Origin: a virus
Taxonomy: Duplodnaviria; Heunggongvirae; Uroviricota; Caudoviricetes
IMG/VR virus record: IMGVR_UViG_2695420859_000007
Location: 1-7,682 of that record
Strand: one strand, 5' to 3'
DNA length: 7,682 nt
Shown here: one piece after another, positions 1 through 7,682 of the stretch
Numbering within the stretch: the stretch's first letter is position 1
How the letters are laid out: each line of letters begins with the position of its first letter
Notes under the pieces: generated by a model
Databases searched by the model: none
Told to the model about the DNA's origin: nothing
What the model saw: only the letters and a program-made list of their open reading frames with translations
Made by a program: the position numbers and the translations under genes

Positions 1-206
1 AGTGATAAACATCCGGCTTCTTCCACCATCGCACCGGACAGGCGACTATGAGGGGACAACGCCGCGCTCCGTTAACGCGGTAAACCCCGGTGTGTATCGT
101 TTTTGATTATCCCCGCACACTCGCGCAGAGGAGTCTCCCTGTCGGGCTGCGGTCTCTGTTAATGCAGGAATACGGCGACAATACCGCGCATGGATAATAA
201 GGTCGC

Positions 207-431
207 TCAACACACTGGCTGTAATGCAGCGGATACCATGCGGCATTTAGCGGCATTCATCGTACACTCCACGGTTAGCTCTTCATTCGTGGCATTCACC
301 TGAAAGGTCCGGGAGTGTAATTGCGTACATTTACCACTGAACGAACCTTCAACAAGAACACGACCACGCTGCAAAATACGGAACGGAATTGTTCCCTGAA
401 AAGGTTCTACGGTTACCCGTAATTTCTTCAT
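207..431 (-). CDS. Hypothetical 74-aa protein, translationally coupled to Rz
   Basis: Its ATG overlaps the Rz stop (ATGA), and GGAGGA lies 4 nt upstream. Translates as [74 protein letters not shown], with four Cys. I do not recognise it, and it is not Bor-like. Confidence 0.45.
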
Positions 432-922
432 GTATCCTCCGGATAATAAAAAGCCAGCTTAGTGCACTGAGTGCGGATATATTCCTGCGCCCCTTCCAGC
501 TGCTTCTGCATTGTCATCAACCGTTCTCTGAGGATGAAATAATCCCGTTCAGCGGTGTCTGCCAGTCGGGGGCCGGTTGCATTATCCACGCTGGAGGTGC
601 CGGTGGCTTCACGCACGGTACCGGAGCAGGTGGCGTTGATCCGCAGGCGCTTACGACCAGCGGCAACATCAGCGCGCAGAGTTTCATTTTCAGCTCTCGC
701 ATCGGCTAATTCCTTCGTGTATCTGGCATCAAGTGCAGCAACATCACGCTGGCGCTGCTGCATATCAGTAATGGTTGCATTTGCCTGCTCCAGCTCACTG
801 ACTTTTTTATCGCGCTGCTCTTTGTAGGTTATGGCGTTATCACGGTAATGATTCAGCCCCAGACTAAGCACACCACAGGCTACCAGCAGGACAATAATCA
901 CCACACACAGAACACGGTTCAT
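428..922 (-). CDS. Rz: Spanin inner-membrane subunit Rz (i-spanin)
   Basis: From the ATG at 922: [39 protein letters not shown]...[17 protein letters not shown]...[18 protein letters not shown], closely matching lambda Rz. SD GGTGGTGA upstream. The track's GTG start at 1006 is a spurious 5' extension. Confidence 0.9.
517..702 (-). CDS. Rz1: Spanin outer-membrane lipoprotein subunit Rz1 (o-spanin), embedded in the +1 frame of Rz
   Basis: [22 protein letters not shown]... with a lipobox (VSAC) and a Pro-rich body ([27 protein letters not shown]) matching lambda Rz1. Confidence 0.85.
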
Positions 923-923
923 A

Positions 924-1010
924 TCACCACCAACGGATTGCCCAGACCAGAACAGCAATGGCCACAATACGAATAGCAAATGCCATTGCCCGAATAAGTT
1001 CAGCACTCAT
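924..1010 (-). CDS. Small hydrophobic ORF-3 (28 aa), ending 1 nt before the Rz ATG
   Basis: Translates as [28 protein letters not shown]. It shares the motif RA[LM]AFAI[KR].VA[VI] with ORF-2. It sits in a third frame and may be a frameshifted fragment. Confidence 0.25.
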
Positions 1011-1021
1011 CTTTTTAAAGT

Positions 1022-1144
1022 TCACGATTTCAGCGCAATGACCAGTTTTGCCAGCCCATACAGCATCGGAGACACAGCAATACCAACAGCCACCCACTTA
1101 ATAGCAAAAGCCAGCGCTCTGCTGATGTCATCAGTCACTGTCAC
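1022..1144 (-). CDS. Small hydrophobic ORF-2 (about 40 codons, GTG start overlapping the ORF-1 stop)
   Basis: GTGA overlap with the ORF-1 stop. Translates as (M)TVTDDISRALAFAIKWVAVGIAVSPMLYGLAKLVIALKS*. It is the C-terminal part of track ORF 1022..1294. Confidence 0.3.
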   Translation of the reverse strand: MTVTDDISRALAFAIKWVAVGIAVSPMLYGLAKLVIALKS

Positions 1145-1272
1145 CCCAGCAGCCCCGACGAAGACAACATCACCCAGGCGAGGGACAGAAAAAGAGCAAC
1201 CAGCATTAGTGAAAATGAAATACCGACAATCACACACAGGACCTTTGCCGGCGTTATGAGTTTGTCTGACAT
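1141..1272 (-). CDS. Small hydrophobic ORF-1 (42 aa), single predicted TM
   Basis: ATG at 1272 preceded by a strong SD (AAGGGG, 5-nt spacer). Translates as MSDKLITPAKVLCVIVGISFSLMLVALFLSLAWVMLSSGLLG*. Absent from the ORF track because it is short. Confidence 0.4.
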   Translation of the reverse strand: MSDKLITPAKVLCVIVGISFSLMLVALFLSLAWVMLSSSGLLG

Positions 1273-1439
1273 AGCTACCCCTTAATTGCCACAATTAACT
1301 GGGATACTACCCATAAAAAAGGGATGCTCCAGACCAGCAAAAATTTCCAGTTTGGTAATTGACTAATCATGAGTCGCAACTCCCTAATCAGTTTGCTAAA
1401 ATCAATCAAGGCAGCCTCCCATAGCTTACTGCCATAAAA

Positions 1440-1476
1440 ACAAAACCCCGCTTGCTGCCAACAAACGGGGTTTTTA
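1440..1476. terminator. Hairpin with flanking A- and T-tracts (potentially bidirectional intrinsic terminator) downstream of R
   Basis: Plus strand AAAACCCCGcTTG-CTGCCAA-CAAaCGGGGTTTTT. On the minus strand it lies about 90 nt after the R stop. Confidence 0.5.
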
Positions 1477-1564
1477 CTTTTATTCACTTACGTTTCGCCA
1501 GTTCGCAGGATTTCGTGTTATCCGTCCGCCTTGGCCAACGTCATTTATTAGCAAAATATTCTGC

Positions 1565-2098
1565 TTATCTGTCGATTCCCCAGCACGCCAGCGCGCTCTC
1601 CTGGTCACGACGGGATACCTGACCGTAACAGTTATTTGAGCGAATACGGCAGTCTCTGCCACCGTCCTTAATCCACCAGCGAATCGCCTCACATGCTCCC
1701 CTGCGATCACCAGCATTAATTCGTCTGTAAAACGTCGACGGGAAACACTTACCGGGACCAATGTTGTACGGACAGAATGACGCGATCCCCGCTTTCTGGG
1801 GTTCGGTCAATGGCACTTTGATGTTTTTCTCCACCCATGCCAGCGCCTTATCACGTTCGATGGCGTTAACCTGGTCGCATTTCTCCTTCGACAACTTCAT
1901 GCCCGGGACGACAGGTTTACCATCCACCAGAATGGCACCGCGACAGATGGTCCAGATACCCGCGCCATCACGGTATGCCGTGGTGTGGTTACCTTCCTTT
2001 TCATCCAGAAACTGGTCGAGAATGTCAGGCGCAGGCGCACCAGCGGCAATCAGCGCCAGAACGGCAGCCGACAGGCCGTATTTGATTTTGGTGTTCAT
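1565..2098 (-). CDS. R: SAR endolysin, GH24 T4-lysozyme-like muramidase (Stx-phage R type)
   Basis: 177 aa. The N-terminal Ala/Gly-rich weakly hydrophobic segment (YGLSAAVLALIAAGAPA) is typical of a signal-anchor-release domain. The catalytic spacing E-x8-D-x5-T sits in EGNHTTAYRDGAGIWT. The rest matches lambdoid and Stx-phage lysozymes. Confidence 0.9.
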   Translation of the reverse strand: MNTKIKYGLSAAVLALIAAGAPAPDILDQFLDEKEGNHTTAYRDGAGIWTICRGAILVDGKPVVPGMKLSKEKCDQVNAIERDKALAWVEKNIKVPLTEPQKAGIASFCPYNIGPGKCFPSTFYRRINAGDRRGACEAIRWWIKDGGRDCRIRSNNCYGQVSRRDQESALACWGIDR

Positions 2099-2134
2099 GG
2101 ATATATTAAATATTCAGCCGCTGTCCCTGGCCCA

Positions 2135-3124
2135 CTAAATACGCACTTTAAGATAAGTCAGCCCCGGATGAAGCCAGTAAGCCGGCACTTTTTTAAAAGG
2201 TGGAGTATTAAAATCACGAAGAAGAGCCTCCCGCACAATTGCATCCTTATCAGCACCACTGGCCAGCGCTTCAATCTCAGCGGCTACCTGAAGATATCCC
2301 ATGCAACGGCCCACGCGCTTCATCAGCCCCTGCTTTTTATTGTTCTTCAGGTAATCAATGGCAAATTCAATGAGCTCCTCACTGTGCTGGTGCGATGGAG
2401 GTGTTACTTTCCCATTTTCTGAGATGGTTATTTTCCCGGCATCACCGGATACAACAAAGGATGGCCGGTTACACTCCCATTCCAGCTCACTGAAATTATC
2501 ATTATGAATACTGAAACACTCTGCGAGATTTCTGCTCATCACTTTCCGGCAATAATCGTAAAACGCAGCAAACTGCTCATCGCGGCGTTTTTTTTCAGGC
2601 TGCTGAAGATGCTCTTTCAACCATGAAGCGCAGCTTAGATTCGCCGCGCGATCAGGAATAGCTTCTTTCATTTCGTCTGCTGCAAGCACCTCATTTTTTG
2701 TTGGGGTGCTTTTTTTCAATTCAGCGATATAGCACTCCAGTTTTTCAATACGCGATTCAACATCATCTTTTTCTGACCGCAGTGTTGACGGCGGCATCTT
2801 CAGAGAACAAGTAATTCTTCCCGGTAGCTTTCCTTTGTAGGTTATCAATACATCCTGCGCATCTAAAATTACGGGGCGCTTTTCCGGTGACGGTTCATCC
2901 CCTTCGCATAACCCGGCAACAATATCCATGAAAAACTGCTTCGCCTGTTTTTTCGCCTCAGCTTCGTAGAACTCCAGCGTGGCACCTTCAGTACGGTCAA
3001 GACTAATCGCCACATCTGGCAACAACAGTGACGGATACCCACCAATTTCCAGTGCCACAGTAACAGTAATCTTATCCGGGTAATTATTTATCCCTTTAAC
3101 ACCCAGTTCGTATTTTTTCTTCAT
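2135..3124 (-). CDS. Hypothetical protein, 329 aa, moron inserted between holin and endolysin; function unknown
   Basis: Long uninterrupted ORF on the operon strand. Its ATG lies 4 nt after the holin stop, with GGGGAG about 7 nt upstream. No signal peptide or TM segment. It has a charged, helical central region (SRIEKLECYIAELKK...EKKRRDEQFAAFYDY). I found no Walker, HNH or other motif I can trust. The DNA looks more AT-rich than the flanking lysis genes by eye. Confidence 0.7.
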   Translation of the reverse strand: MKKKYELGVKGINNYPDKITVTVALEIGGYPSLLLPDVAISLDRTEGATLEFYEAEAKKQAKQFFMDIVAGLCEGDEPSPEKRPVILDAQDVLITYKGKLPGRITCSLKMPPSTLRSEKDDVESRIEKLECYIAELKKSTPTKNEVLAADEMKEAIPDRAANLSCASWLKEHLQQPEKKRRDEQFAAFYDYCRKVMSRNLAECFSIHNDNFSELEWECNRPSFVVSGDAGKITISENGKVTPPSHQHSEELIEFAIDYLKNNKKQGLMKRVGRCMGYLQVAAEIEALASGADKDAIVREALLRDFNTPPFKKVPAYWLHPGLTYLKVRI

Positions 3125-3128
3125 CGCT

Positions 3129-3335
3129 TTACTCCCCCCGCGCCGCCTTACGACGGTCCTCCCTGATTTTGAAATACAGGTTAGTCAGATACGTCAGCAG
3201 GCCAAACAGCAGACTTCCCAGCACACCTATTGCCACCCACTGGGACGGAGAGACTTTGTCCAGCAGCTGCAGTAACCAGTATCCCGTCCCCACCGCTGAC
3301 GTGGTGTATGACACACCTGTTGTGATTTTTTCCAT
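3129..3335 (-). CDS. S: Holin, phage-21 S21-type pinholin (class II, two TM domains)
   Basis: 68 aa, [68 protein letters not shown]. This is near-identical in pattern to S21 (..[52 protein letters not shown]). Confidence 0.85.
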
Positions 3336-3380
3336 CTGATGTATGTCTCCGTCACCGCCGACAGAAAATGAAAGTAAAGA

Positions 3381-3416
3381 AAAACAAAAAAGCCGCCAGT
3401 GTCACCCACTGACGGC
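3381..3416 (-). terminator. Rho-independent terminator between nanS-p and the holin gene (minus-strand orientation)
   Basis: Minus strand GCCGTCAG-TGGGTGACA-CTGGCGGC followed by TTTTTTGTTTTT: an 8-bp stem with one G-U pair. Confidence 0.5.
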
Positions 3417-3580
3417 CAACTCCGGGAGCCGTGATTATGGCATTCAGGCTCTGCTAAAAATGCCAGATAACATTCCGGCCTCCCCTGATTCAGGTTATAA
3501 ATGACACAATATCTTGACAACATCCGTCACTATCTGTCAGAAAATGTACTGCCAGATATAAGTATCATGTGAAGTACATC

Positions 3581-3617
3581 TACCCGTTTTAGCCAGCGTC
3601 CTTCAGAGTGGGCGCTG
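3581..3617 (+). terminator. Rho-independent terminator oriented for the plus strand, abutting the nanS-p 3' end
   Basis: Plus strand AGCCAGCGtCC-TTCAGAGT-GGgCGCTGGCT followed by TTTTTTT. The minus-strand reading has no U-tract after the hairpin. Confidence 0.45.
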
Positions 3618-3627
3618 GCTTTTTTTA

Positions 3628-5412
3628 TTATGCTGCGGGTGCATTTATCTCCAGCACCAGACTTTCTATCTCAACGCCATACGCTGCATTTTTTGTAACA
3701 TCCGTCAGCGTCAGCGCATTCAGTCCCAGTGTCAGACTGTCTTTTATAACCTGGAATGCCGGGCCAGCCACTCCATTCAGTTTCGGAGTAACCGTGGCAC
3801 TGCCGGCGGTGAACACCAGCTCCAGCGTCTGCCAGTCGTTACCGTAATCGCCGAACTCCCCCAGCTTCGTGTTTCCGGCTTTCCTGTGATGCATCAGATT
3901 CACTCTGCCGTCAGTGGTCTGAGTGAAGTACGACATCAGGAACGGATTACCGGTACCCGTCATCGCCACACCATCAGGAACGGGAGCATCCGTATACAGA
4001 TAAATCCCCAGCCCGAACTGATTGTTGGTCAGTGCGCCTGACAGGCGGAACTTACAGGTCAGTCTGCCGCCCTGTGTCAGCAGGGTAATTGCGTCATCCA
4101 CCGGATGCGTCAGGGACCAGGTTTTATTGCTCTGCTTGGTGATCTTAAATACACCATCTGACAACTGAATTCCGCCATCCTTAATGCTCCAGCCCTGCGC
4201 AGCAGCCTCTCCGGCTGCCGGCAGCAGGGAGATTGTGCGAACGGACGTATCTGCAGACGGACCCGATGGCGTGTTGCCGCCGGGCGAGGGTTTGATTTCC
4301 GGTGCCTTACCACTGATGAAGGCTGAGGTGCGCCCGGCTGCGTTCAGAATAGCGGTTGCCAGACGATCCGGAATAATGCTCCTGCGCGCCCATGAACTGA
4401 AATGTGTCGGGCGGTTTGATGATACCTGGTTTCCATTCGTTCTCGATGCCGCACCGTAATATCCTGATGCCGGAATATCCGGATCTTCTGCCGGCGCGTT
4501 AGTGGCGGTATTGACACCGTTACCGTCTGTCATGAAGGGCACAAAATAAACGCCCTCACTCTCCCTGTTTTTATACCCGCCGTACACGGTGTCGTAACTG
4601 CCACCATGGCACTGCGCGTTAAACACGGAGAGGTCAGCACGAAACTGTGTCAGCATGGCTGTAAACAGCGCAGGTTGCTGTGCGTGGGTGGCGGCGCTCA
4701 TGTCAAACTCACCCTGCATCCAGCAGACGGCCAGCAGAACGTTTTTGGGATTTTTCTGCAATGCCGCTTTTGTGCGGGAAATCAGATCCTGATATAACGG
4801 CTTGCCCACCCCCCAGCGTGCCGAATCCTGACTGGCCCCCGTGGACTCGCTGAATGTCCCCTCCGCGCCCTGGGTAAATGCCGAACCACCACGACAGCAT
4901 GGTACCAGCAGGATCCCCGCGTTATTCGGGATATACGGGAGCAGTTTTTTGGCAATATGTAAACCCTGGCCGACACAGCCGTACTGCCCTTTGCTCAGGT
5001 CAGCCCTCGGATGATTCAGCGTACTCATATCCTGCACATCATGCAGACAGTGGTCAGCCGGAATAATATCGTTATATCTGCAGGCAGCCCCGCCCGGCGT
5101 CACTGTACTGCGGCGCGCCAGCTGTTTAATGCGCGGATCCGGAGCATCGTATGAATCCGGCAGCGGAAGCCCTTCACCGTAAGCCATGGCATTGGACTGC
5201 CCGGCCAGTACGATGACGTAGTACCACTCCGGCTCAGTTGCACCACTGACCACCACATCACCTTCTGCTGTAATCGCCTGCATCAGGGTATAAGGGGTTA
5301 TGGCCACCGGACTACCAAACGGCTGCCAGCCCTCTTTCAGTTTGTGTGTCAGCTTTTCCGCAAGGTCTGACGGCGACGCCGCCCTGACAACATCATAATG
5401 TTTAAATGTCAT
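3628..5412 (-). CDS. nanS-p: Prophage-encoded 9-O-acetyl-sialic acid esterase NanS-p (SGNH/DUF303-type esterase with a C-terminal lectin-like domain)
   Basis: 594 aa. The N-terminus MTFKHYDVVRAASPSDLAEKL and the esterase motif LAGQSNAM match the YjhS/NanS-p proteins found downstream of stx in Stx phages, as I recall them. The start has a good SD (GGGAGGA). Its position immediately upstream of S is the usual one. Confidence 0.85.
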   Translation of the reverse strand: MTFKHYDVVRAASPSDLAEKLTHKLKEGWQPFGSPVAITPYTLMQAITAEGDVVVSGATEPEWYYVIVLAGQSNAMAYGEGLPLPDSYDAPDPRIKQLARRSTVTPGGAACRYNDIIPADHCLHDVQDMSTLNHPRADLSKGQYGCVGQGLHIAKKLLPYIPNNAGILLVPCCRGGSAFTQGAEGTFSESTGASQDSARWGVGKPLYQDLISRTKAALQKNPKNVLLAVCWMQGEFDMSAATHAQQPALFTAMLTQFRADLSVFNAQCHGGSYDTVYGGYKNRESEGVYFVPFMTDGNGVNTATNAPAEDPDIPASGYYGAASRTNGNQVSSNRPTHFSSWARRSIIPDRLATAILNAAGRTSAFISGKAPEIKPSPGGNTPSGPSADTSVRTISLLPAAGEAAAQGWSIKDGGIQLSDGVFKITKQSNKTWSLTHPVDDAITLLTQGGRLTCKFRLSGALTNNQFGLGIYLYTDAPVPDGVAMTGTGNPFLMSYFTQTTDGRVNLMHHRKAGNTKLGEFGDYGNDWQTLELVFTAGSATVTPKLNGVAGPAFQVIKDSLTLGLNALTLTDVTKNAAYGVEIESLVLEINAPAA

Positions 5413-5444
5413 TATTCCTCCCGGCCGGGATAGTGTATTAAATC

Positions 5445-5491
5445 AGATATGGAGTGGGCTGTAGTCCGGAAGCCTGAATGACACACGGGGA
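5445..5491. repeat. Perfect 12-13 bp inverted repeat with 21-nt spacer in the nanS-p upstream region
   Basis: GGGCTGTAGTCC (5446..5457) and GGACTACAGCCC (5479..5490) are exact reverse complements. The repeat lies about 35-80 nt upstream of the nanS-p ATG and has no U-tract on either side. Confidence 0.6.
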
Positions 5492-5595
5492 CTACAGCCC
5501 AAGAAATGAAAAAAGGCCACGCAGTTGCGCAGCCTGATAAACCCTGGTTAAAATCCACACGATAACAACACAACAATATCAGTATCTCATGCTAT

Positions 5596-5621
5596 TGCCC
5601 GAACCCATTCGGGCATTTTTT
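5596..5621 (+). terminator. Rho-independent terminator (plus-strand orientation), convergent with the one at 5628..5651
   Basis: Plus strand TGCCCGAA-CCCA-TTCGGGCA followed by TTTTTT. Confidence 0.5.
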
Positions 5622-5627
5622 ACCCAT

Positions 5628-5651
5628 AAAAAAGCCCCTCCGGAGAGGGGC
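5628..5651 (-). terminator. Rho-independent terminator (minus-strand orientation)
   Basis: Minus strand GCCCCTC-TCCG-GAGGGGC followed by TTTTTTAT: a 7-bp GC-rich stem, 4-nt loop and U-tract. Confidence 0.55.
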
Positions 5652-5818
5652 ATGTTTGCATGCACATTCTTTTTCTTGCATGGTGCCGGGTGCCTCCCGG
5701 TGAATTCAGTATCAGCACCTGAATCCGCGATTATCACATATACCTGGTTGCTGATTGCCCCTCCGCACAGGGGGATTCACCATGCAGTAGTATTTTTAAT
5801 AAACAGTAAACAAAAAAA

Positions 5819-5986
5819 TCAAGCATTATGCAGGCTGTTTCTTTTTATCACCGGCCACAGCAATACCACAATGCCGCAGACCAGCACCCCATCCGCCAGC
5901 ACCGACATGATTCTGCTGGTGAAATCCACCATCACCACCAGAAACAGCAGGAGTGCAGCCACAGCCAGGCGCAGTTTTACCGTCAC
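5819..5986 (-). CDS. Small hydrophobic ORF (55 codons from GTG; possible internal ATG starts), two predicted TM segments
   Basis: Its GTG overlaps the TerB-remnant stop (GTGA). It translates as VTVKLRLAVAALLLFLVVMVDFTSRIMSVLADGVLVCGIVVLLWPVIKRNSLHNA*. There is no strong SD, so it could be a chance ORF. Confidence 0.2.
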   Translation of the reverse strand: MTVKLRLAVAALLLFLVVMVDFTSRIMSVLADGVLVCGIVVLLWPVIKRNSLHNA

Positions 5987-6443
5987 TGGTGATTCTCCAG
6001 ACGAAGACCCAGAACACCGGCAATCTCTTCCAGCACCTTGCGCTCTTCCGGCTCAATTTCGCCGTCTGCCTCCGCAATGGCCACCGCCACATCCAGCACA
6101 TCTTCCGCTTCACGCGTATCGTGTTTCACATCCTCGATCTCACGTAACGCCGCACGACGACCAATTTTAAAGTTCGTATCCAGCTGACCGATAATGGTTG
6201 CGCTAATCGCATTAATTTCTGACGTAAACGCGGACAGCGCAGGCTGATTACGCAGTACCTGTTCGATCTTCGCTTTCTAGGAAGCCTCACATTCACCATC
6301 TGCACAGGCCACCAGGTAGGCAGCATTAATAACCGCCTGTGCCAGATCGCGTTTCTCAAACTTTCCTTTTTCCGGTTAACGTGACACACCAATAACTCTT
6401 GTCGAAAAAGCCAGCAAGCTGAAAGACCGGTATTCACAACCAC
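5983..6443 (-). pseudogene. TerB-family (tellurite-resistance TerB-like) gene remnant, disrupted by an in-frame TAG and at least one frameshift
   Basis: The C-terminal ~97 codons are intact (KAKIEQVLRNQPALSAF...LDVAVAIAEADGEIEPEERKVLEEIAGVLGLRLENHQ*) and show the two TerB-like 'hydrophobic-ADGE' repeats. Upstream the frame is broken by TAG (plus-strand ctag near 6278), a TAA, and a frame change in the run ggaaaaaggaaag. The ORF track splits it into out-of-frame ORFs 6126..6443 and 5826..6113. Confidence 0.5.
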
Positions 6444-6480
6444 CAGCGCGTTTACTGTACTGGCGTGATTTCAGTCATAA

Positions 6481-6507
6481 AAAAACCCGCCTGGCGACGG
6501 GTGTAAA
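6481..6507 (-). terminator. Candidate tR'-like intrinsic terminator downstream of pR'
   Basis: Minus strand ACCCG-TCGCCAGG-CGGGT followed by TTTTTTT, about 45 nt downstream of the putative start. The stem is only 5 bp, so this is a modest terminator. Confidence 0.4.
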
Positions 6508-6529
6508 AAATCTTCTAACGTCAGGCATA

Positions 6530-6577
6530 AAACGCCCATCGTTAGGGCAAATTTACCACAGATTCGGGAAAAATCAA
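6530..6577 (-). promoter_or_regulatory. pR'-like late promoter with qut-like element
   Basis: Minus strand just after the Q stop reads TTGATT-(16 nt)-TAAATTTGCCCTAACGATGGGCG. This closely resembles lambda pR' (TTGACT...GGTAAATTTGACTCAACGATGGGTTAA), including the -10 TAAATT and the ACGATGGG start region. Confidence 0.6.
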
Positions 6578-6582
6578 CAAAG

Positions 6583-7404
6583 CTATCTGGTCACCTTTTT
6601 CAGTTGTTGTTCTGCCCATGCTTCTTCAATATCAAACTGCACCACCAGCGTATCGTAAAAACGTTTAACTGTTTTTTTCCATGTATCAAGAGATATGGCA
6701 TCGGTTACATTACATATGGCATTAAATGCCTCCGTTGAAGGTAATCTTTCATAGCCACGACCACCACAACGCTGGCAGTCTCTGATAACAGGCATACCAC
6801 GTTTTACCGACTCTTCACGATGAATGGCAACACCTCGCCCACGACAATCTTTACAGGCGGTGGAAACCTCCCCCTTCCCTCCACACTCCGGACAGGCAAC
6901 TTTTACCACCTCCCTGACTTTTTTCCATTCCTCCCAGTAAGACGGATACACGCCTTTTGTGCACTTTGCCCACACTGGCGGCTTACCATCCGGATACTGG
7001 ATCTTGTTTGTAAAAACCTCGCTTTCAATAAATTTTTTTCCGTGACAACAGGGGCACTGTTTTTTGCTCGCCGCGCTACGGGCATAATCTTCAAACGCAT
7101 ACGAAGCCATAATACGCATCACTGCCGGTTTTATTTCTGCCGGGAGTTTTCTTAACGCCGCCACGCGATCACACCGACTGAGTGCATATTCTGTCAGCAA
7201 TTCTGTTGCCCGCTCTCTGTCATTCATACTAATGCCCATTTTCCCAAGGAACGCAGAAAACCCCATCTCAGCCCAATTCTGTGTCATGCCCTGCGCAGCC
7301 ATCACATCAGTGATACTCAGCGTATCTTTCGACGTTGAGGCCGATGCATCAGTCAGGCCGGGGGATTTTGGGGAGTAGTATTTCGGTAAATCTTCCAGTT
7401 TCAT
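6583..7404 (-). CDS. Q: Late-gene antiterminator Q (lambda Q family, carrying an extra Cys-rich insertion)
   Basis: 273 aa. The N-terminus (MKLEDLPKYYSPKSPG...TDVMAAQGM) and C-terminus (YDTLVVQ...KKVTR) line up with lambda Q as I remember it. It has four CxxCxGxG motifs (CPCCHGKK, CPECGGKG, CKDCRGRG, CQRCGGRG). It sits directly downstream of rusA and upstream of a lambda pR'-like promoter. Confidence 0.8.
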   Translation of the reverse strand: MKLEDLPKYYSPKSPGLTDASASTSKDTLSITDVMAAQGMTQNWAEMGFSAFLGKMGISMNDRERATELLTEYALSRCDRVAALRKLPAEIKPAVMRIMASYAFEDYARSAASKKQCPCCHGKKFIESEVFTNKIQYPDGKPPVWAKCTKGVYPSYWEEWKKVREVVKVACPECGGKGEVSTACKDCRGRGVAIHREESVKRGMPVIRDCQRCGGRGYERLPSTEAFNAICNVTDAISLDTWKKTVKRFYDTLVVQFDIEEAWAEQQLKKVTR

Positions 7405-7682
7405 TTTTTGACCTGCCCTTCAAGCATTATGGGGTAAATCTTCACCCCCAGACGTCCACCAGATACTGGCTGAGCACGAACGATATTGATTTCATCAAAC
7501 TGCTCATCGTCCATTAGCAACCCCGCATGCGTCAGCGCATCCAGCGGCGCTTTCAGAATATTGTCCAAGTCACGGCGGCGCTTATCCGGTGGCTCGGCAA
7601 TAATCTTTATCGCCAGCCTTCCGGACAGGCTTAATTTCAGCCGCTGCTGGCGAACAATAAGCGCCACAGCCCGGCGATAACG
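7401..7682 (-). CDS. rusA: Holliday-junction resolvase RusA, partial (N-terminus lies beyond the window end)
   Basis: The translation contains the RusA signature PDKRRRDLDN...DALTHAG...DDEQ. The reading frame stays open to the window edge, so the GTG at 7667 in the ORF track is not the true start. Its stop overlaps the Q start (ATGA), the lambdoid rusA-Q arrangement. Confidence 0.75.
   Translation of the reverse strand, partial: RYRRAVALIVRQQRLKLSLSGRLAIKIIAEPPDKRRRDLDNILKAPLDALTHAGLLMDDEQFDEINIVRAQPVSGGRLGVKIYPIMLEGQVKK

Follow-up and report, generated by a model that had tools for sequence, protein, structure and literature searches.

Truncated tciA, intact tciB and two small RNA genes between Q and nanS-p of a lambdoid Escherichia coli prophage

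The window analysed here is a stretch of 7,682 nucleotides, positions 1 to 7,682 of the IMG/VR virus record IMGVR_UViG_2695420859_000007 (Caudoviricetes). The subject is its interval 5413-6582, which lies between the gene of the late antiterminator Q and nanS-p, encoding a sialate O-acetylesterase. All genes of the window are on the minus strand, and the window at its full length is 99.8% identical to prophages of three complete E. coli genomes. Its late region has the order Q, promoter pR' with terminator tR', cargo, nanS-p, S, R and Rz, with nanS-p, holin, endolysin and Rz on the same strand. An earlier note, made from the sequence alone, had described this as the order of Shiga toxin (Stx) phages with a decaying TerB-like gene in the toxin slot; the order of the Pfam families agreed with the first part of that description and is the same as in phage 933W.

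The interval is very probably the known PR' moron site of a non-Stx lambdoid E. coli prophage of the enterohaemorrhagic (EHEC) or Shiga toxin-producing (STEC) type, carrying a deletion-truncated tciA, an intact tciB and the genes of two small RNAs (sRNAs), STnc100 and AgvB. The slot is an ordinary, already known kind of site in a known state, and its cargo is a streamlined remnant of a larger module (a small open reading frame (ORF), a DNA methylase, a ParE/HTH toxin-antitoxin pair, tciAB and the sRNAs) which is still intact, undeleted, in close relatives.

The cargo between Q and nanS-p

The features of the slot and its two boundaries are, in the direction of late transcription:

6583-7404, minus strand: late antiterminator Q, 273 aa, lambda-Q family (PF03589, 168 bits; phrog_127)
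6365-6477, minus strand: post-tR' leader, which in relatives lies ahead of a 66-aa ORF and a DNA methylase (sequence comparison)
6362-6364, minus strand: deletion junction at an AAAAAG microhomology (window compared with contig L066, introduced below)
5983-6363, minus strand: remnant of tciA, TerB family, codons 18-143 and stop, no start codon (PF05099; alignments)
6277-6279, minus strand: in-frame TAG at codon 46 of tciA (Glu; GAG in intact alleles; alignments)
5819-5986, minus strand: tciB, 55 aa, two-helix hydrophobic protein, DUF3927, intact, GTG start (PF13064; phrog_1470)
5622-5811, minus strand: STnc100-family sRNA gene (Rfam RF02076, 147.8 bits against a gathering threshold of 47, E 1e-33)
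5560-5621, plus strand: AgvB anti-sRNA (GcvB sponge), convergent with STnc100 (Rfam RF02702, 96.5 bits against 56, E 2e-18)
3628-5412, minus strand: nanS-p, the downstream boundary of the slot (Pfam DUF1737, SASA and DUF6645; aligned with L0105 of 933W)

With its stop codon read through, the tciA remnant matched PF05099 at 42.8 bits (cut-off 24.4, E 7.6e-11), in agreement with the TerB family proposed earlier. The intact TciA of PPyecE_EH1910 scored 60.9 bits with the same profile, and the intact TciA of phage Evi matched phrog_632 ("tellurite resistance, moron") with an E value of 1.7e-69. The remnant has lost its start and codons 1-17, carries the TAG at codon 46, which had been noticed before and is real, and has the substitution Y37C. 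No indel was found from codon 18 to the stop in comparison with four intact alleles, among them those of Evi, JLK-2012 and PPyecE_EH1910. In the 99.8%-identical genomes RefSeq annotates a TerB family pseudogene with an internal stop, followed by a "DUF3927 family protein". The tciA remnant is a non-functional pseudogene of the TerB family.

The hydrophobic 55-codon ORF following it, correctly described in the earlier note as GTGA-coupled, is tciB (PF13064, 62.3 bits against a cut-off of 25; phrog_1470, 'TciB-like'). Its GTG start overlaps the TGA of tciA as GTGA at 5983-5986, with a GGAG 8 nt upstream. The same overlap was present in 79 of the 80 loci with intact tciA surveyed in IMG/VR, and would be expected to couple the translation of tciB to that of an intact tciA. 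The TciB of the window and that of Evi are 100% identical in amino acid sequence.

Phage-family databases recognise the two genes as phage moron families (phrog_632 and phrog_1470). Annotation of TciA and TciB as anti-phage defence proteins was sought with PADLOC, which gave no usable match (best E 0.0035), and in a literature search on tciA and tciB no paper on the function of the proteins stood out among the hits listed, which were mostly unrelated papers on Trypanosoma typing. Phage P1 has a TerB-family protein with 42-51% identity (tblastn) and a small TciB-like partner (phrog_1470). The tciA-tciB(-tciC) genes of P1, the source of the gene names, lie in a different genomic context, P1 not being a lambdoid phage, and are not known to have a demonstrated function.

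The deletion in tciA and its spread

The lesion at the 5' end of tciA was traced by comparison with L066 (IMG/VR contig UViG_2698536450_000008), an undeleted relative with intact tciA-tciB. Window positions 7682-6362, containing RusA, Q, pR', tR' and the leader, correspond to L066 150-1470 with 99.6% identity, and positions 6364-4982 correspond to L066 4051-5434 with 95% identity. The 2,580 bp between the two L066 segments are missing from the window, and the post-tR' leader is joined to codon 18 of tciA. In L066 the missing DNA contains the 66-aa ORF, a DNA methylase (N6_N4_Mtase), a ParE_toxin gene with its HTH_3 partner and the first 17 codons of tciA. AAAAAG is found at the end of both breakpoints. 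PPyecE_EH1910 gave the same picture: window 6506-6362 is 91% identical to the sequence just after its Q gene (L001 1279-1422), and from 6364 on the window resumes 2.6 kb further along PPyecE_EH1910, inside tciA. The post-tR' leader is found behind the same Q also in UTI89 and L066. From these alignments, tciA was truncated by a single microhomology-mediated deletion of 2,580 bp, to which one nonsense codon is added.

The earlier note had instead described a TerB-family gene broken by the TAG, a TAA and a frameshift. On that reading a full-length gene would be decaying in place through point lesions, and the slot would contain nothing functional except perhaps the hydrophobic mini-ORF. Such an impression can be given by the real TAG together with an out-of-frame 105-aa ORF at 6126-6443 and the TAA at 6376-6378. 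The TAA, however, lies upstream of the tciA homology boundary at 6364, in the post-tR' leader, which is conserved, is not part of tciA and is untranslated in relatives, and no frameshift exists, as the remnant aligns with Evi from codon 18 to the stop without an indel. The true second lesion is the 2.58-kb deletion of the start and codons 1-17. Furthermore, two intact sRNA genes fill 5560-5811; these approximately 250 nt of the interval had gone unnoticed. Decay in place is therefore extremely unlikely. Of the decaying passenger, the pseudogene state of tciA remains; the stepwise point decay is replaced by one deletion and one TAG, and the slot also holds intact tciB and the two intact sRNA genes.

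The distribution of the junction was determined in 5,426 complete E. coli genomes with a probe of 181 nt spanning it, counted at a coverage of at least 80%; the leader part of this probe alone was matched by approximately 2,200 genomes. The junction was present in 477 of the 5,426 genomes, including O157:H7 and O111:H8 strains, in the latter behind a different Q gene. An intact tciA start, detected with a probe for the 5' end, was present in 789 genomes, at a median of two places per genome. Redundancy was considered as a general reason for the tolerated loss of tciA and was rejected, because the close genome S1-IND-01-A showed only the truncated copy in the 5'-end search. The junction, Y37C and the TAG are common to all four junction alleles compared, i.e. 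those of the window, L003, L004 and L010 (strain FRIK944, O157:H7). All three recur unchanged in independent complete genomes of Korean, Indian, Japanese and US origin, and with the junction in 477 genomes the explanation of the lesions as sequencing or assembly artefacts can be given practically no weight.

The differences among the junction alleles are mostly synonymous; between L004 and L010, codons 47-143 differ by seven synonymous and one nonsynonymous substitution. Compared with window 5983-6363, the alleles L003, L004 and L010 show clustered substitutions which copy polymorphisms of intact tciA: for example, reference nucleotides 84, 90 and 96 agree with Evi, and 261-282 with PPyecE and JLK. 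The simplest reading of these alignments is that the allele differences are short recombination patches from intact copies in other prophages and do not represent further decay.

A remnant that is still functional, for instance through a 48-aa ORF with a GTG start (5983-6129) or a re-initiation product acting with TciB, would account for the lack of further lesions. The synonymous excess and the absence of any extra stop or indel from codons 47-143 in the four alleles are in line with this, and the 48-aa fragment has repeatedly been called as a gene (phrog_3920). However, codons 18-45 are equally biased towards synonymous differences, although they are untranslatable, having no start, the TAA upstream and the TAG downstream. 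As these codons show the same bias and the clustered differences copy intact alleles, as recombination patches would, the synonymous excess is no evidence of function, and selection still acting on the remnant was rejected. The 48-aa fragment would lack half of the TerB domain, its GAGG is only 2 nt before the GTG, and in O111:H8 strain 8E the tciA remnant is eroded further. A functional remnant is thus very unlikely, and we regard tciA as dead.

A different matter is whether the deletion was streamlining and not decay, i.e. whether selection kept tciB and STnc100/AgvB, with tciB working without its TerB partner. This would fit the complete conservation of the TciB protein in comparison with Evi while tciA is dead, as well as enteropathogenic E. 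coli (EPEC) E2348/69, where a DUF3927 ORF is found in the same position behind an unrelated membrane protein. We consider this unlikely, though less remote than the alternatives above. If it were true, DUF3927 would be the constant protein cargo of the slot, e.g. a small membrane protein in exclusion or lysis timing.

Small RNA genes and relation to Stx phages

STnc100 and AgvB abut at 5621/5622. STnc100 has its own terminator (stem 5634-5651 in the terminator scan), and its 5' end is likely near 5785, as judged by alignment with PasD2. AgvB is identical to the Rfam consensus at 62 of 62 positions, with the CACAACA seed in the variable 5' region, at 5569-5575, followed by the conserved 3' hairpin of the family and a terminator at 5596-5615. 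The 5' 21 nt of AgvB pair with nt 66-85 of K-12 GcvB (R1 seed) with a recomputed energy of -19.4 kcal/mol. Altogether the terminator scan found 7 terminator-like sites in the interval where 1.4 were expected. The control elements around the two genes are the following:

5793-5822, minus strand: putative STnc100 promoter, TTGATT at 5817-5822, 18 nt, TAAAAA at 5793-5798 (predicted from sequence)
5525-5554, plus strand: putative agvB promoter, TTGCGC, 18 nt, TAAAAT, ending 5 nt before the Rfam 5' end (predicted from sequence)
5514-5535, minus strand: third terminator-like hairpin, on the late strand, between agvB and nanS-p (terminator scan)

AgvB was described by Tree et al. (2014, PMC4104026) from O157:H7 Sakai as EcOnc01a/b, encoded in Sp10 and Sp17; its CACAACA pairs with the R1 seed of GcvB and relieves the repression of DppA, and in bovine rectal mucus it improves the growth of O157:H7. 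For the Sakai copies the same work showed expression, binding to Hfq and derepression of GcvB targets. It also located moron coding sequences downstream of the Q-antiterminated PR', with a conserved phage ORF beyond them and convergent sRNAs in between. By this published description, the Sakai prophages have the layout of the window: Q, PR', moron coding sequence, a convergent sRNA pair and a conserved esterase ORF. The PR' moron site has long been recognised (Juhala 2000, as cited in Tree et al. 2014), and for this reason the earlier proposal of a variable cargo site, which is borne out by the occurrence of tciAB in some phages and of stxAB with tRNAs in others, is not a new inference.

Stx phage 933W has the same order as the window: Q, pR', tR', three tRNAs, stx2AB, STnc100, AsxR, nanS-p (L0105), S, R and Rz. 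In BP-4795 (Stx1), stx1AB is followed by STnc100, an AgvB-like RNA and nanS-p, so that STnc100 has an antisense AsxR or AgvB-like RNA in both phages. Compared with 933W/Sp5 and BP-4795, the window has truncated tciA and tciB in place of stxAB and lacks the ileZ-argN-argO tRNAs, a frequent though not universal feature of Stx-converting phages. Its Q is of the lambda type with 273 aa, unlike the 933W-type Q, and the flanks are approximately 70-86% identical to those of Stx phages. STnc100 directly follows stx2B in 933W, stx1B in BP-4795 and tciB in Evi, JLK-2012 and PPyecE. As the same element directly follows both operons, tciAB occupies the position of stxAB.

Intact tciA-tciB, 90-96% identical to the window at the nucleotide level and then followed by STnc100, is found in Evi (LR597642), JLK-2012 (JQ347801), PPyecE_EH1910 (LC567835) and L066; in PPyecE and L066, AgvB and nanS-p also follow, as in the window. 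Evi and L066 share the 273-aa Q and the pR'/tR' of the window. The DNA upstream of intact tciA differs: Evi, with the same Q and then three tRNAs, and JLK-2012 have tRNAs, PPyecE and L066 have the methylase and ParE/HTH genes; the window instead shows the deletion of 2,580 bp, together with the TAG. No tRNA was found within 1.2 kb upstream of tciA in L066, whereas Evi and the uropathogenic E. coli UTI89 (L012), with the same Q, each have three. In UTI89 the same Q and leader are followed by a small ORF, a methylase and tRNA-Ile/Arg/Arg. After these tRNAs UTI89 has two tandem copies of STnc100 (5395-5585 and 5863-6072), with no protein cargo there and only a remnant of nanS-p. The 80 IMG/VR loci have at least four types of Q upstream. 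Ahead of tciA there are in most cases either tRNAs or a methylase, the latter with or without a toxin-antitoxin pair, and behind tciA there is usually STnc100.

In prophage PP2 of EPEC E2348/69 (L014; Pearl Mizrahi 2021, Zhu et al. 2026) the order is Q, cargo ending in a DUF3927 ORF, the STnc100-related PasD2, nanS-p, the antisense RNA PasA and S. The DUF3927 ORF there follows an unrelated 247-aa multi-pass membrane protein without a Pfam match (L014 1630-2617), not a TerB protein; a TerB partner is therefore not a fixed companion of DUF3927. STnc100 has been related to the EPEC sRNA PasD (Zhu et al. 2026). PasD was considered as a name for the element of the window and rejected, and the Rfam name was kept, because the match between PasD2 and the STnc100 of the window is limited to the first 26 nt. 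Of PasA, only the 5' half is left in the window.

The position of the slot and its flanks (STnc100, an anti-sRNA and nanS-p), which are common to Stx1 and Stx2 phages, could also mean that the window derives from a former Stx phage which lost stxAB, with tciAB left over or moved in later, and for related prophage sRNAs an origin in Stx phages has been argued (Zhu et al. 2026). No remnant of stx was detected in the interval, however, at either the protein or the DNA level: with queries from BP-4795 and 933W, Stx1A/B and Stx2A/B gave only chance matches in tblastn (best E 0.95), as did the operons in blastn (best E 0.33). Nor was a tRNA found in the interval (ARAGORN; Rfam at E up to 1), and in both respects the earlier note was right. 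L066, with a 99.6% identical RusA-Q module, has the methylase, the toxin-antitoxin pair and tciAB and no stx. None of the 80 IMG/VR tciA loci had stx within 4 kb, and none of the listed phage-name groups of the tciA-positive records is Stx-converting (2 of 130 records are in unnamed groups). A loss of stxAB is accordingly a highly improbable history for the slot, and a non-Stx lambdoid prophage is the preferred reading.

Some results weigh against the reading of the interval as a moron site with intact tciB and a functional sRNA pair. The tciB gene is intact in three of the four junction alleles and has a TAG of its own in L004, as well as in the further-eroded O111:H8 allele (L011). STnc100 has previously been noted 75 nt downstream of stx2, without a proven role. 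In FRIK944, an O157:H7 strain with the same junction, STnc100 is present and AgvB was not found above the threshold, so the association with AgvB is modular and not fixed. A generic sigma-70 consensus scan flagged neither pR' nor the STnc100 and agvB promoters; pR' was missed because only 8 of its 12 consensus positions match. As the scan did not find them, pR' and the sRNA promoters rest on the comparison with lambda and on position.

Flanking features and working of the slot

Upstream of the leader lie the elements of late transcription:

6550-6577, minus strand: predicted pR', -35 TTGATT at 6572-6577, 16-nt spacer, -10 TAAATT at 6550-6555 (aligned with lambda pR', TTGACT...TAAATT)
6538-6543, minus strand: AACGAT, a -10-like element at the predicted start (lambda alignment)
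6478-6502, minus strand: intrinsic terminator tR', stem 6485-6502 followed by a T-run (terminator scan)

Promoter function of pR' is predicted by its likeness to lambda. AACGAT is the same hexamer as in lambda, at the same 6-nt distance from the -10 and followed by the same GGG. In lambda this -10-like element is the sigma70-dependent pause and Q-loading element, and by analogy it may have the same role in the window. The tR' terminator comes 40 nt after the predicted pR'/AACGAT element and is kept in phage Evi behind the same Q. The predicted leader RNA from pR' to tR' (6478-6543, minus strand) would be approximately 65 nt long with two hairpins (-21.3 kcal/mol), in a position analogous to lambda 6S RNA and the StxS of Stx2 phages. 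Homology to StxS or 6S RNA was rejected, only the terminators being alignable.

The Q protein is 32% identical to lambda Q (E 9e-41) and matches the Q-lambda structures PDB 7UBM and 4MO1. It is lambda-Q-like at both ends and has an insertion of approximately 66 aa, rich in CXXC, with a match to DnaJ_CXXCXGXG below the threshold (30.6 against 32.7 bits) which is absent from lambda Q.

The remaining features of the window are:

7401-7667, minus strand: RusA (Pfam)
5455-5501, no strand assigned: perfect 13-bp inverted repeat (5455-5467 and 5489-5501, loop of 21 nt), past the third terminator in the leader of nanS-p (sequence)
3129-3335, minus strand: holin, P21-type (Pfam)
2135-3124, minus strand: DUF1327 protein (Pfam)
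1565-2098, minus strand: lysozyme (Pfam)
428-1006, minus strand: Rz (Pfam)

The 13-bp inverted repeat is conserved in PPyecE_EH1910, L003 and L004 and absent from JLK-2012. In nanS-p an in-frame deletion of 66 nt at 4597-4600 (minus strand), flanked by CAGT microhomology, removes 22 residues, AADVPWICGDTTYYWKNTYATQ, which are conserved in 933W, in PPyecE, in FRIK944 and also in CP148374, one of the 99.8%-identical genomes. The deletion was not observed in the closest genomes; it may be peculiar to this strain or an artefact. The SASA match of nanS-p ends at profile position 157 of 226, and the esterase may therefore be impaired. Between nanS-p and the holin, 3549-3597 (plus strand) is 85.7% identical to nt 1-49 of the EPEC sRNA PasA. 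This segment lacks the 3' half with the seed and terminator, 139 nt being absent in comparison with E2348/69 (L014 4813-4951), and is similar to 'PasA-3', a variant lacking the terminator that was described by Zhu et al. (2026).

The 329-aa product of 2135-3124, encoded between the holin and lysozyme genes, begins with a DUF1327 region and is matched by phrog_1085 along its entire length. For its equivalent in CP148374 RefSeq gives a truncated pseudogene of the 'YdfR family'; this is apparently an artefact of annotation. Inside Rz, a 61-aa ORF (517-702, minus strand) with a lipobox-like LVVSAC and a proline-rich tail is consistent with Rz1; it is absent from the feature table of the closest genome.

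In the lysogen, transcripts from pR' would stop at tR', as in lambda, giving the leader RNA of approximately 65 nt, while STnc100 and AgvB would be made from their own promoters. AgvB would bind the R1 seed of the host GcvB and relieve the repression of GcvB targets such as dppA, an activity that Tree et al. (2014) demonstrated for an RNA of identical sequence. Upon induction, the Q-modified polymerase would be expected to read through tR', the dead tciA, tciB and the sRNA terminators into nanS-p, S, R and Rz. On this late transcript tciA would make no product, and tciB may still be translated from its own GGAG.

Beyond correct annotation the significance of the locus is small: the site, its variable cargo and the convergent sRNAs have been published, and the pseudogene is flagged in RefSeq. 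In this slot without stx, the payload whose function is best supported is RNA; AgvB rewires the GcvB regulon of the host, and a reading of proteins only therefore misjudges such regions. The lesion in tciA can be followed back to one microhomology deletion, of which an undeleted relative survives, and so provides a clean marker for recombination among co-resident EHEC prophages. With tciAB and stxAB as alternative occupants of one position, the site also offers a natural comparison for studies of Q-dependent morons.

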